NCBI RefSeq assembly: GCF_003790525.1
Contig: NZ_CP033635.1
DNA: 64,000 nt
Direction: 5' to 3' (one strand)
Source: Escherichia coli
Lineage (GTDB): Bacteria > Pseudomonadota > Gammaproteobacteria > Enterobacterales > Enterobacteriaceae
Notes under the pieces: model-generated
Told to the model about the DNA's origin: nothing
Seen by the model: the letters and a program-made list of their open reading frames with translations, nothing else
The model's database searches: none
Position numbers and translations under genes: made by a program
In this document: piece after piece, positions 41,310-44,564 of the stretch
How the letters are laid out: each line of letters begins with the position of its first letter
Numbering within the stretch: position 1 is the stretch's first letter

Positions 41310-42023
41310 ATGGAAAAAGTCATGTTGTCCTTTGACAAAGTCAGCGCCCACTACGGCAAAATCCAGGCGCTGCATGAGGTGAGCCTGCATATCAATCAGG
41401 GCGAGATTGTCACCCTCATTGGCGCGAACGGGGCGGGGAAAACCACCTTGCTCGGCACGTTATGCGGCGATCCGCGCGCCACCAGTGGGCGAATTGTGTT
41501 TGATGATAAAGACATTACCGACTGGCAGACAGCGAAAATCATGCGCGAAGCGGTGGCGATTGTTCCGGAAGGGCGTCGTGTTTTCTCGCGGATGACGGTG
41601 GAAGAGAACCTGGCAATGGGCGGCTTTTTTGCCGAACGCGACCAGTTCCAGGAACGCATAAAGTGGGTGTATGAACTGTTTCCGCGTCTCCATGAACGCC
41701 GTGTTCAGCGGGCGGGCACCATGTCCGGCGGTGAGCAGCAGATGCTGGCGATTGGGCGCGCGCTGATGAGCAACCCGCGTTTGTTGTTGCTTGATGAGCC
41801 ATCGCTCGGGCTGGCACCGATTATCATCCAGCAAATTTTCGACACCATCGAACAACTGCGCGAGCAGGGGATGACCATCTTCCTCGTCGAGCAGAACGCC
41901 AACCAGGCGCTGAAGCTCGCTGATCGCGGCTACGTGCTGGAAAACGGTCATGTGGTGCTCTCCGATACTGGTGATGCACTACTGGCGAATGAAGCGGTGA
42001 GAAGTGCGTATTTAGGCGGGTAA
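41310..42023 (+). CDS. livF: Branched-chain amino acid ABC ATPase LivF
   Basis: Start at MEKVMLSFD (237 aa); Walker A GANGAGKTT. Confidence 0.93.
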   Translation: MEKVMLSFDKVSAHYGKIQALHEVSLHINQGEIVTLIGANGAGKTTLLGTLCGDPRATSGRIVFDDKDITDWQTAKIMREAVAIVPEGRRVFSRMTVEENLAMGGFFAERDQFQERIKWVYELFPRLHERRVQRAGTMSGGEQQMLAIGRALMSNPRLLLLDEPSLGLAPIIIQQIFDTIEQLREQGMTIFLVEQNANQALKLADRGYVLENGHVVLSDTGDALLANEAVRSAYLGG

Positions 42024-42032
42024 ATTATCAAT

Positions 42033-42059
42033 AACCCGGCAGCTAAGTTCTGCCGGGTT
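42033..42059 (+). terminator. Hairpin after livF (10-bp stem AACCCGGCAG/CTGCCGGGTT)
   Basis: Perfect inverted repeat 10 nt after the stop; the T tract is weak. Confidence 0.55.
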
Positions 42060-42141
42060 ATTCGTCCGTATACAGACTTGTTTCAACAGACCGGGAGGAT
42101 TAAAACCAGACCACTTATTTGCCACGGAAAGGTTTGCTCCC

Positions 42142-42888
42142 ATGCATTATGCCGTTGTTGTCATGCTTGAACTGCTTTGCTGTATTCACGCTTACCGTAC
42201 CGGACAAGAGCGGTACTGGATTTTTATCATTTTCTGTTTTCCGGTGATTGGCTGCGTGGCGTATTTCGTCATAGTGATGTTGCCTGAAACGGGCGCTGAC
42301 CGTCACGGGCATACTTTGCTGATGCGCCTGCAGGACAAACTCAACCCTGAGCGCCACCTGCGCAAATTAACCGAAGAACTGGCGATTGCCGAGACGAATC
42401 AAAACCATTATGCGTTGGCTAATGAACTGGTGTGTCTGGGGCGTTATCACGAAGCTGTTCCCCATTATCAGCAGGCGTTAAGCGGGATATTCGTCCATGA
42501 AGCGGCAATGATGCTAAGCCTGGCGCAGGCGCAGTTTGCCATTCAGGAGTTCGCCGCCTGTCAGCAGACGCTGGAAGATGTGATGCGTTATAACCCCGAT
42601 TTTCAGTCGGCAGACGGGCATTTGTTATTTGCCAGAGCGTTAGCCGCACAAGAAAAATACGCTGATGCGGAAAGCGAGTTTGAGGTGTTGATTTCTTATT
42701 ACTCCGGCCCGCAGGCGCGTATTTACTATGCGGAAATGTTGGCGAAAATGAGTCGGTTACGTGAAGCCAACGAGCAGTATATTGCTGTGGTTGATACGGC
42801 TAAACGTTCAAAACCACATTATAGAAAACACCACCGGGAATGGATTAAGACCGCCAATGAACGGCTGAAGCAGAGTGTGGTGCAATGA
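42142..42888 (+). CDS. Hypothetical membrane-anchored protein: N-terminal PLDc_N-like two-helix anchor plus C-terminal helical-repeat (TPR-like) domain
   Basis: 248-aa ORF; N-terminus RYWIFIIFCFPVIGCVAYFV resembles PLD-nuclease N-terminal membrane domains; the remainder is predicted alpha-helical. Not present between livF and ugpB in the K-12 order as I recall it. Confidence 0.6.
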   Translation: MHYAVVVMLELLCCIHAYRTGQERYWIFIIFCFPVIGCVAYFVIVMLPETGADRHGHTLLMRLQDKLNPERHLRKLTEELAIAETNQNHYALANELVCLGRYHEAVPHYQQALSGIFVHEAAMMLSLAQAQFAIQEFAACQQTLEDVMRYNPDFQSADGHLLFARALAAQEKYADAESEFEVLISYYSGPQARIYYAEMLAKMSRLREANEQYIAVVDTAKRSKPHYRKHHREWIKTANERLKQSVVQ

Positions 42889-43111
42889 AAATCTTCTTTG
42901 CCGTTAGACCAGTGTCGCGGCAATCTTTTGTTAAAATTGAAAAATGTAGCTCTCATCGGGCAGCAAAACTGGACGCAGAATTTGCTGCCATTTTTGCTCT
43001 TCATGGTAAGGAGTTCTGGCGATTAGCTGGCCGTTAATCGCCTCTTTTCAGTGCATTCTCGGGATATCCGTGCCCCATCTCCCATTTTCCCTCACCCGTA
43101 CCGTCACCGCC

Positions 43112-43129
43112 TTGTCATCTTTCTGACAC
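43112..43129 (+). promoter_or_regulatory. Putative Pho box (TTGTCAT-cttt-CTGACAC) in the ugpB promoter
   Basis: 7-bp direct repeats with 4-bp spacer resembling the PhoB consensus, about 120 bp upstream of ugpB. Confidence 0.5.
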
Positions 43130-43247
43130 CTTACTATCTTAAAAATGTAACAAAATAGTTATTTTTCTGTAATTCGAGCATGTCATGTTACCCCGCGAGC
43201 ATAAAACGCGTGAATTCGCGCATTCGGTACAACAAGAGAGATAATCA

Positions 43248-44564
43248 ATGAAACCGTTACGTTATACAGCTTCAGCACTGGCGCTCGGACTGGCTTTAAT
43301 GGCAAATGCGCAGGCAGCGACGACCATTCCGTTCTGGCATTCTATGGAAGGGGAACTGGGTAAAGAGGTGGATTCTCTGGCCCAACGTTTTAACGCCGAA
43401 AACCCGGATTACAAAATTGTACCGACCTATAAAGGCAACTACGAACAGAATTTAAGCGCGGGGATTGCCGCATTTCGTACCGGCAACGCTCCGGCTATTT
43501 TGCAGGTTTATGAAGTTGGCACCGCCACCATGATGGCGTCGAAAGCCATTAAACCGGTATATGACGTGTTTAAAGAGGCGGGGATTCAGTTCGATGAGTC
43601 GCAGTTTGTGCCGACGGTTTCAGGCTACTACTCCGACAGCAAAACTGGGCACTTACTCTCCCAGCCGTTCAACAGCTCGACTCCCGTTCTCTATTACAAC
43701 AAAGACGCCTTCAAGAAAGCCGGTTTAGACCCGGAACAGCCGCCGAAAACCTGGCAGGATCTGGCGGACTATGCCGCGAAACTGAAAGCCTCCGGTATGA
43801 AGTGCGGCTACGCCAGCGGCTGGCAGGGCTGGATCCAACTGGAAAACTTTAGCGCCTGGAACGGTCTGCCGTTTGCCAGCAAAAACAACGGCTTTGACGG
43901 CACAGACGCGGTGCTGGAGTTCAACAAGCCGGAGCAGGTGAAACACATCGCTATGCTCGAAGAGATGAACAAGAAGGGCGATTTCAGCTACGTCGGGCGT
44001 AAGGATGAATCCACCGAGAAGTTCTATAACGGTGATTGCGCGATGACGACCGCCTCTTCCGGTTCTCTTGCCAACATTCGCGAGTACGCCAAATTTAACT
44101 ATGGCGTAGGCATGATGCCTTACGATGCCGATGCGAAAGACGCGCCGCAAAACGCCATTATCGGCGGAGCCAGTCTATGGGTAATGCAGGGTAAAGATAA
44201 AGAAACCTACACCGGCGTGGCGAAGTTCCTCGACTTCCTCGCAAAGCCAGAAAACGCTGCCGAGTGGCATCAGAAAACCGGCTATCTGCCAATCACTAAA
44301 GCGGCGTATGACCTGACCCGTGAGCAGGGCTTTTACGAGAAAAACCCAGGAGCGGATATTGCCACGCGTCAGATGCTGAACAAGCCACCGTTGCCGTTCA
44401 CCAAAGGTTTGCGTCTGGGCAACATGCCGCAGATCCGCGTGATTGTGGATGAAGAGCTGGAGAGCGTGTGGACCGGTAAGAAGACACCACAGCAGGCGCT
44501 GGATACTGCCGTTGAGCGTGGGAACCAGTTACTGCGCCGCTTTGAGAAATCGACGAAGTCTTAA
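43248..44564 (+). CDS. ugpB: sn-Glycerol-3-phosphate-binding periplasmic protein UgpB
   Basis: 438 aa with signal peptide; SBP family 1. Confidence 0.95.

Follow-up and report, generated by a model that had tools for sequence, protein, structure and literature searches.

A predicted membrane-anchored TPR protein gene in the variable livF-ugpB slot of Escherichia coli

Introduction

Why do some strains of Escherichia coli carry a gene between livF and ugpB that K-12 does not possess? Did a mobile element bring it there, or is it an old resident that most strains have lost? We address these questions in a 64,000-nucleotide stretch of E. coli DNA (NCBI RefSeq assembly GCF_003790525.1, contig NZ_CP033635.1; hereafter the window), in which the livF stop codon ends at position 42023 and ugpB starts at 43248. 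The resulting intergenic gap measures 1224 bp. In agreement with an earlier note on this DNA, which had described a gap of about 1.2 kb with an open reading frame (ORF) of 248 amino acids, it contains a gene for a protein with tetratricopeptide repeats (TPR):

42142-42888, + strand: PLDc_N-TPR membrane protein gene, 248 amino acids, ATG start (recognised from the ORF, RefSeq annotation, the ratio of nonsynonymous to synonymous substitution (dN/dS), family size and an AlphaFold2 (AF2) model)

The motif RYWIFIIFCFPVIGCVAYFV, quoted in the earlier note, corresponds to residues 24-43 of this ORF. Positions 41900-43400 of the window are 100% identical to E. coli SC516, a chicken isolate, in which RefSeq names the identical 248-codon gene 'tetratricopeptide repeat protein' (WP_000558843.1). 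The counterpart in O157:H7 Sakai, ECs_4300, is annotated as 'hypothetical protein'. The gene has thus been annotated before, yet it is uncharacterised, and a search of the literature on ECs4300/Z4823 and on proteins that combine PLDc_N with TPR yielded no paper that mentions it. We conclude, with somewhat more confidence than doubt, that the gene is functional and transcribed on its own, that it encodes a TPR protein anchored in the inner membrane, likely an adaptor, and that it has long resided in its slot.

Results

A constrained gene of a large family

Does the ORF encode a protein at all? Among the Escherichia alleles compared, its dN/dS lies between 0.07 and 0.23, values by which the gene is judged to be under purifying selection, a real gene and no chance ORF. 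Together with 513 full-length relatives at E <= 1e-30, this rules out the spurious ORF for which the earlier note had allowed. The search behind that number, in which a profile built from 14 relatives was run against 1.84 billion cluster representatives (50% identity), returned 6495 proteins at E <= 1e-3 and 513 at E <= 1e-30. The best 150 matches are nearly all 243-255 amino acids long and align from end to end, and such matches of near-constant length imply a fixed architecture, beyond shared repeats. Judged by these matches, the TPR protein has relatives in at least 513 clusters at 50% identity, which make up a large proteobacterial family without a characterised member. Relatives in the AlphaFold database (AFDB) come from Gamma-, Beta- and Alphaproteobacteria (Xenorhabdus, Pseudomonas, Xanthomonas, Lysobacter, Saezia, Aliidongia), under names that say only 'TPR protein', 'cardiolipin synthase N-terminal domain-containing protein' or 'membrane protein'.

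A predicted two-helix anchor followed by four TPR helix pairs

The earlier note had proposed a two-helix anchor with a PLDc_N-like signature, followed by a helical, TPR-like domain. Two N-terminal helices and, behind them, four TPR pairs are seen in the AF2 model of the 248-residue protein (mean predicted local distance difference test score 87):

42145-42291, + strand: two-helix hydrophobic hairpin (helices 2-19 and 23-50; codons 2-50), from AF2, conserved columns, Pfam PLDc_N, hhalign and hydropathy

42397-42882, + strand: four TPR helix pairs (86-112, 121-150, 157-186, 191-222) and a basic capping helix (232-247); codons 86-247, from AF2, Foldseek and Pfam

H16, W26, P34, G37, Y41 and P48 are near-invariant in the hairpin. 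Residues 54-82 form two linker helices of lower AF2 confidence and conserved sequence (P69, R71, L73, L76). Pfam PLDc_N (PF13396) matches part of the hairpin (residues 26-44, E = 6.9e-4); the same model finds 12 of the 54 family members at E <= 1e-3 and 37 at E <= 0.1. With hhalign, family residues 23-45 align with helix 2 of E. coli ClsA (residues 37-59) over 23 columns (probability 71%, E = 3.7e-5). Helix 2 of the window protein shares with the ClsA anchor the pattern W-x7-P-x2-G-x3-Y. Unlike ClsA, it is followed by a TPR domain instead of a phospholipase D catalytic domain, and the likeness spans about 20 residues.

The most conserved motif of the TPR region is NPDFQSxxGHLL[FY]AR[AT]. Pfam TPR_19 is matched at E = 5.7e-5 (and by 45 of the 54 family members), TPR_2 and TPR_1 more weakly, and Foldseek returns MamA, OGT and consensus TPR structures at a target-normalised TM-score of ~0.8. 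The protein thus qualifies as a TPR protein, a class defined by three or more tandem helix-turn-helix repeats of ~34 residues with matches to TPR profiles. A sequence search of the PDB returned generic TPR proteins only, with LbcA (PA4667) as the best (E = 5e-7). NCBIfam gave no family assignment, only weak generic TPR models (best YbgF, 28 bits against a cutoff of 90), and no catalytic motif was found in the protein.

LapB (YciM) and similar TPR adaptors of the inner membrane resemble this arrangement in outline, since they too have an N-terminal membrane anchor, then a TPR solenoid and no enzymatic domain, and presumably recruit partners at the membrane. LapB differs in its single transmembrane helix, its nine TPRs and the rubredoxin zinc finger at its C-terminus, whereas the window protein has a two-helix hairpin, four TPRs and a capping helix at its end, with neither a zinc finger nor a Cys-rich domain, nor does it match the NCBIfam LapB model. 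One AFDB relative labelled 'LapB' looks mislabelled.

Orientation of the TPR domain

On which side of the membrane does the solenoid lie? Over 54 family members, lysine plus arginine (K+R) averages 0.06 at the N-terminus, 2.07 in the inter-helix loop and 4.19 in the first 20 residues after helix 2. These totals favour both ends inside and hence a TPR domain in the cytoplasm, which matches the usual view of ClsA. The catalytic domain that follows the homologous anchor of ClsA is generally taken to be cytoplasmic. The earlier note had called the TPR domain cytoplasmic, and the charge totals lean that way, while the conserved positive loop conflicts with it; on these signals we regard the cytoplasmic orientation as somewhat the likelier one.

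Might the protein instead face the periplasm, as a TPR chaperone or an adaptor for proteases of the kind of CcmI, NlpI or LbcA, with the loop in the cytoplasm and the TPR domain exported? The two conserved K/R residues of the loop, with a net charge of +1.6 over ~10 residues, are the usual mark of a cytoplasmic loop before a signal-anchor helix, and the best PDB match, LbcA, is a protease-activating TPR protein. The 20 residues after helix 2 are still more positive, with a net charge of +2.6, the LbcA match reflects generic TPR similarity, and the ClsA comparison points to the cytoplasm. We consider an exported domain unlikely, although it fares better than the other alternatives discussed below.

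Three states of the livF-ugpB slot

How variable is the junction? Our census covered 5426 complete E. coli genomes, and an alignment of four alleles delimited the variable block:

42024-43064, no strand assigned: allele-specific block of the slot (four-allele alignment, genome census)

The block begins at the base after the livF stop codon and ends at ~43064, where the common ugpB promoter region TATCCGTGCCCCATC begins. Its 1041 bp contain only the TPR gene and a remnant of the antitoxin gene phd. In the alignment the block is best described as an allelic replacement, with the livF stop codon as its starting point. By far the commonest state is a K-12-type block of ~215 bp with its own hairpin and repetitive extragenic palindromic (REP)-like repeats (median 11 copies per genome), present in 4630 of the 5426 genomes. 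The window-type TPR block is found in 658 (12%), O157:H7, O55:H7 and O145 among them, and the TPR gene occurs in every O157:H7 genome sampled. The slot holds a phd-doc toxin-antitoxin pair in 107 genomes, and about 30 fall outside all three states. Each E. coli allele has the TPR gene or the phd-doc pair, never both.

The gene is thus strain-variable, as had been proposed. Its predicted absence from K-12 also holds, for the livF-ugpB gap of MG1655 contains REP-like sequence and no trace of the gene. At 398 bp this gap does not make livF and ugpB tightly adjacent; the earlier note had assumed neighbouring genes with a short gap.

An old resident rather than an insertion

The TPR gene also lies between livF and ugpB in Escherichia sp. 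E1V33, Escherichia sp. MOD1-EC7003, E. whittamii and E. albertii, and likewise in C. freundii, Citrobacter sp. NCU1 and one Pseudocitrobacter genome. Its nucleotide identity drops with species distance in parallel to that of livF. Synonymous divergence (dS) from E. whittamii is 0.36 for the TPR gene and 0.32 for livF, and dS from C. freundii is saturated. The same slot in seven related species, together with a divergence that tracks livF, argues for an old resident gene rather than the insertion that the earlier note had assumed. On the economical reading, the gene would have been resident in the slot for long and lost by most E. coli.

Could it nevertheless be a recent accessory island, carried into the gap by a mobile element? 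Its presence in only 12% of complete E. coli genomes and its absence from K-12 would fit, as would a GC content of the block (0.45-0.53) slightly under that of the liv genes (0.55-0.58) and the occurrence of one distant family member on a conjugative plasmid. The conserved slot and the livF-like dS speak against it, and the block, ordinary for E. coli in its GC content, contains no integrase, insertion sequence (IS), tRNA gene or convincing flanking repeats. The sole flanking 'repeat' is an imperfect 14-mer (11/14) that is also present within the TPR gene, probably by chance. No copies of the family occur in the phage collection, and a plasmid search found copies only on Ralstonia and Methylobacterium megaplasmids. 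None of the features by which genomic islands are recognised is seen here, be it an integrase, transposase or tRNA gene, direct repeats, or absence from the same site in relatives. A recent island is therefore quite improbable, and already largely refuted.

We also considered whether the K-12 state arose by REP-mediated deletion between flanking repeats, and rejected this: the upstream side in E. albertii is unrelated, and the 14-mer of the window would not give the K-12 sequence. E. albertii has the K-12-type REP and tail downstream of its TPR gene.

Local divergence around the slot is uneven. The livF gene of the window (41310-42023) differs from that of O157:H7 Sakai by a dS of 0.24 with zero amino-acid changes, while dS of the adjoining TPR gene, at 0.065, is below that of livF; the higher value for livF suggests a mosaic recombination history around the slot.

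Several relatives carry further ORFs here. In E. albertii and E. whittamii an extra ORF of ~96 amino acids, predicted to encode a membrane protein, lies between livF and the TPR gene (locus L014, ~5590-5880, and locus L013, ~5600-5880). In MOD1-EC7003 (L010, 5802-11802) the TPR gene is followed by a 231-residue ORF (ATGA overlap), an IS200-like transposase fragment, yhhA, yhhX, yhhW and gntR, and the ugp operon and ggt are apparently missing at that position. The extra slot ORFs of E. albertii, E. whittamii, C. freundii and MOD1-EC7003 had no match in Pfam, NCBIfam or PADLOC.

A decayed phd gene behind the TPR gene

Overlapping the stop codon of the TPR gene is a second, short ORF:

42885-43037, + strand: 50-residue ORF overlapping the TPR stop codon (ATGA), in some genomes, SC516 among them, annotated as 'hypothetical protein' (WP_001302354.1) (tblastn)

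Its C-terminal half, AKLDAEFAAIFALHGKEFWRLAGR (nucleotides 42930-43034), resembles the toxin-binding C-terminus of Phd. In tblastn, Phd of E. coli VCSW5 matches with 16 of 35 residues identical (E = 5e-8 in a 1.2-kb search space) and C. freundii Phd at E = 5e-6. Phd residues ~39 to 73 alone are recognisable; the N-terminal DNA-binding half is missing, and no doc-like sequence was found in the gap (tblastn E = 2.9). In the phage collection the ORF matches one sequence only, the 3' end of phd of Salmonella (STM3559), from the same livF-ugpB slot, and no homologues were found outside E. coli. By these matches the ORF is what decay has left of a phd antitoxin gene, namely its 3' end, and the partner gene doc has been lost. 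It retains ~35 C-terminal codons of phd at the site where Salmonella, C. freundii and 107 E. coli genomes have Phd-Doc. A Phd/YefM-Doc type II system comprises a full antitoxin and a doc/Fic toxin gene; here there is only a remnant and no toxin-antitoxin system. Diverged versions of the remnant exist in Pseudocitrobacter and Citrobacter sp. NCU1. The alleles of E1V33 and E. whittamii and those encoding P0001, a protein 92% identical to the window protein (NCBI label E. fergusonii), have no phd remnant, a different terminator, and 233 bp from gene to ugpB.

An intact phd-doc pair is found in the slot not only in the 107 E. coli genomes but also in C. freundii and Salmonella (loci L003, 1712-2307; L005, 5738-6324; L099, 3387-3973). 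In C. freundii the order is TPR gene, two ORFs without known identity, phd, doc, then ugpB, and the Salmonella slot contains phd-doc only (STM3559/STM3558), without the TPR gene. The presence of the pair at this slot in all three indicates that it, too, is an old resident. The three E. coli states are thus alternative survivors of a slot that once contained more, the TPR gene and phd-doc. The window strain retained the TPR gene, and of its phd-doc pair only the 3' end of phd is left; other E. coli retained just the pair, and K-12, with 85% of E. coli, neither.

Does the shared slot tie the TPR protein to the toxin-antitoxin pair, or to phage defence? The two occur together in C. freundii, and in the window the gene adjoins a phd remnant; it is, moreover, a solitary and patchy gene in a variable slot. 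The link is weakened by the E. coli alleles, which have the gene or the pair and never both, and by Salmonella, where phd-doc occurs without the gene. Of the more distant homologues, three have a context with gene calls, and in none of the three is a toxin-antitoxin pair adjacent. Across clades the gene has no constant neighbour, and neither the TPR protein, nor the 50-residue ORF, nor the extra slot ORFs of related genomes matched PADLOC-DB at E <= 0.1. We think such a role very unlikely.

Another toxin-antitoxin module was seen near the slot. O157:H7 Sakai has an AtaT-type acetyltransferase toxin with its antitoxin (ECs_4307/ECs_4308; L089, 21978-22778) a few kb away, between panM and a second livK-annotated binding-protein gene (ECs_4309), and ataT likewise adjoins panM in strain M10 (L004, 1-148).

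A gene without constant neighbours

Does the gene have a partner elsewhere? An analysis of all ORFs in 80 loci across clades, and of the contexts annotated with Pfam, found no conserved neighbour and no adjacent sigma factor gene; the only apparent shared neighbours were antisense shadow ORFs of the TPR gene itself and generic ABC (ATP-binding cassette) ATPases. Outside Escherichia, Citrobacter and Pseudocitrobacter, homologues variously follow mnmE near oriC, adjoin rsmA/apaGH, lie on a conjugative plasmid or occupy other sites. The gene thus stands alone, and the lack of a neighbour common to the clades speaks against a partner in the same operon, above all against a sigma factor under the control of the protein. 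The earlier note had entertained an 'anti-sigma-like' role, and a membrane anchor with a helical domain, encoded beside the Pho-regulated ugpB promoter, would fit a membrane anti-sigma factor or a regulator dedicated to liv or ugp. Either role is highly improbable, since 0 of 80 loci have an adjacent sigma factor gene, the homologues examined outside the three genera all lie away from liv and ugp, neither Pfam nor NCBIfam shows an anti-sigma domain, and K-12 controls both operons without the protein.

The plasmid-borne relative is P0197 (245 amino acids), on a conjugative plasmid-like contig (L094, 1-12738) with type IV secretion, RepA, MobA and ParA genes. Its gene is preceded by one for a small CBU_0592-family membrane protein, to which the extra slot ORFs of the related genomes are unrelated.

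Transcription signals

Is the gene transcribed on its own? The following features surround it:

42030-42062, + strand: livF-distal hairpin, 13-bp perfect stem, 7-nt loop (fold -20.9 kcal/mol, z = -5.4; inverted repeat)

42072-42106, + strand: conserved upstream block ACAGACTTGTTTCAAC...GGAGGATTAAAAC (allele comparison)

42126-42132, + strand: Shine-Dalgarno-like GGAAAGG (sequence)

43018-43052, + strand: terminator-like hairpin at 43018-43042 (10-bp stem), then TCTTTTCAGT (terminator scan, fold)

43065-43247, + strand: ugpB promoter region common to all alleles, outside the variable block (alignment, pattern search)

The hairpin behind livF, which the earlier note had taken for the livF terminator, is confirmed and likely serves as terminator of the liv operon, though with a T-poor tail. 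It is specific to the window allele; in the alignment, the K-12 and phd-doc alleles have a different hairpin. The upstream block is kept in C. freundii as well as in six Escherichia alleles. Where the ~96-residue ORF is inserted ahead of it, in E. albertii and E. whittamii, the block stays beside the TPR gene. It contains a candidate weak sigma-70 promoter (TTGTTT, 17-nt spacer, TAAAAC), from which we infer a promoter role. The transcript of the TPR gene probably ends at the hairpin of 43018-43052, just ahead of the ugpB promoter. Bracketed by an upstream block that travels with it and a terminator-like hairpin of its own, the gene may plausibly form an independent transcription unit, as the earlier note had suggested. 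That note had also placed a Pho box in the ugpB promoter. One consensus match does exist at 43134-43151, within the promoter region conserved in all alleles, and it is a weak one, a single Pho-box-like match with 3 mismatches where 0.33 would be expected by chance.

A nearly invariant 176-bp segment

The end of the variable block differs from its surroundings in diversity:

42889-43064, + strand: nearly invariant segment of 176 bp, which takes in the phd remnant and the terminator (genome comparison)

This segment is at least 99% identical to the window in 636 of 640 E. coli genomes, compared with 25 of 570 for a piece of the TPR gene of equal length. Across six divergent alleles its nucleotide diversity (pi) is 0.0038, with 2 variable sites, both synonymous in the frame of the 50-residue ORF. 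In both flanks pi is 0.023-0.059; by region it is 0.03-0.06 in the TPR gene, 0.034 at the livF 3' end, 0.023 in the ugpB promoter and 0.026 at the ugpB 5' end, and variable sites return within ~30 bp on either side. The + strand of the segment contains several hairpins (fold z = -3.2). Rfam gave no credible match over 41900-43400. Identity with Esr41, a small RNA of enterohaemorrhagic E. coli, is ruled out by the location of Esr41 in O-island 43, and the supplements of RNase E-CLASH (crosslinking, ligation and sequencing of hybrids) mention, for this region, the 5' untranslated region (UTR) of ugpB alone.

Is this selection or history? We lean slightly towards a neutral explanation, in which the segment is private to one allele class with a young ancestor and its flanks have been diversified by recombination. 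The O145 allele, with an E1V33-like 5' end, is an example of recombination with alleles that lack the segment, and the sharp edges in diversity would be explained by homology that ends exactly at the segment borders. Alternatively, selection may act on the nucleotide sequence itself, as on a small RNA, a terminator or a cis element, or may preserve a peptide that neutralises Doc.

Discussion

What might the TPR protein do? In our proposal, the two-helix hairpin, which resembles the anchor at the N-terminus of cardiolipin synthase, would hold the protein in the cytoplasmic membrane, and the conserved linker of ~30 residues would lead to a protein- or peptide-binding solenoid of four TPR pairs and the basic capping helix. 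The protein would act as a membrane-tethered adaptor that binds or sequesters a partner encoded elsewhere. With neither a catalytic motif nor a conserved partner gene, a membrane-tethered, non-enzymatic adaptor appears the most likely role.

Several observations weigh against this interpretation. The adaptor role is argued by analogy with the general behaviour of TPR domains, and the literature search yielded no experimental work on any PLDc_N-TPR family member. The PLDc_N match is short (19-23 residues) and weak, and helix 1 lies outside every match. The two conserved positive charges of the inter-helix loop are awkward for a periplasmic loop, so that the topology signals conflict. The candidate promoter is a poor consensus match that a stricter consensus scan missed. 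As to the history, the TPR gene is patchy in Citrobacter as well, where some have lost it, and in the E. albertii type strain NBRC 107761 it is frameshifted after residue ~184 (EFEVLIS; locus L014, 6001-6743), which reflects either a pseudogene or a draft-assembly error. The gene is clearly dispensable, and its transfer between genera by homologous replacement is a less likely but conceivable route.

Two further ideas go beyond the adaptor proposal. The hairpin, in which H16, W26 and Y41 are invariant, might direct the protein to particular lipids or sense them, and so bring a TPR-bound client there. The phd remnant, for its part, might have been co-opted, as a small RNA derived from the 3' UTR or as a free-standing C-terminal peptide of Phd with which incoming Doc would be neutralised. 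These two speculative readings, that the PLDc_N-TPR family is a widespread, unrecognised class of inner-membrane adaptors and that the 176-bp phd remnant has been co-opted, are rather unlikely.

The practical consequences are modest, as the gene is dispensable and nothing ties it to virulence. The livF-ugpB slot nonetheless offers a clean case of three alternative states, the TPR gene, a toxin-antitoxin pair or neither, reached by differential loss, which matters wherever 'islands' are called from presence/absence data. The TPR gene itself represents a family of hundreds of clusters across Proteobacteria without a characterised member, and a function for all of them would follow from the identity of its partner.

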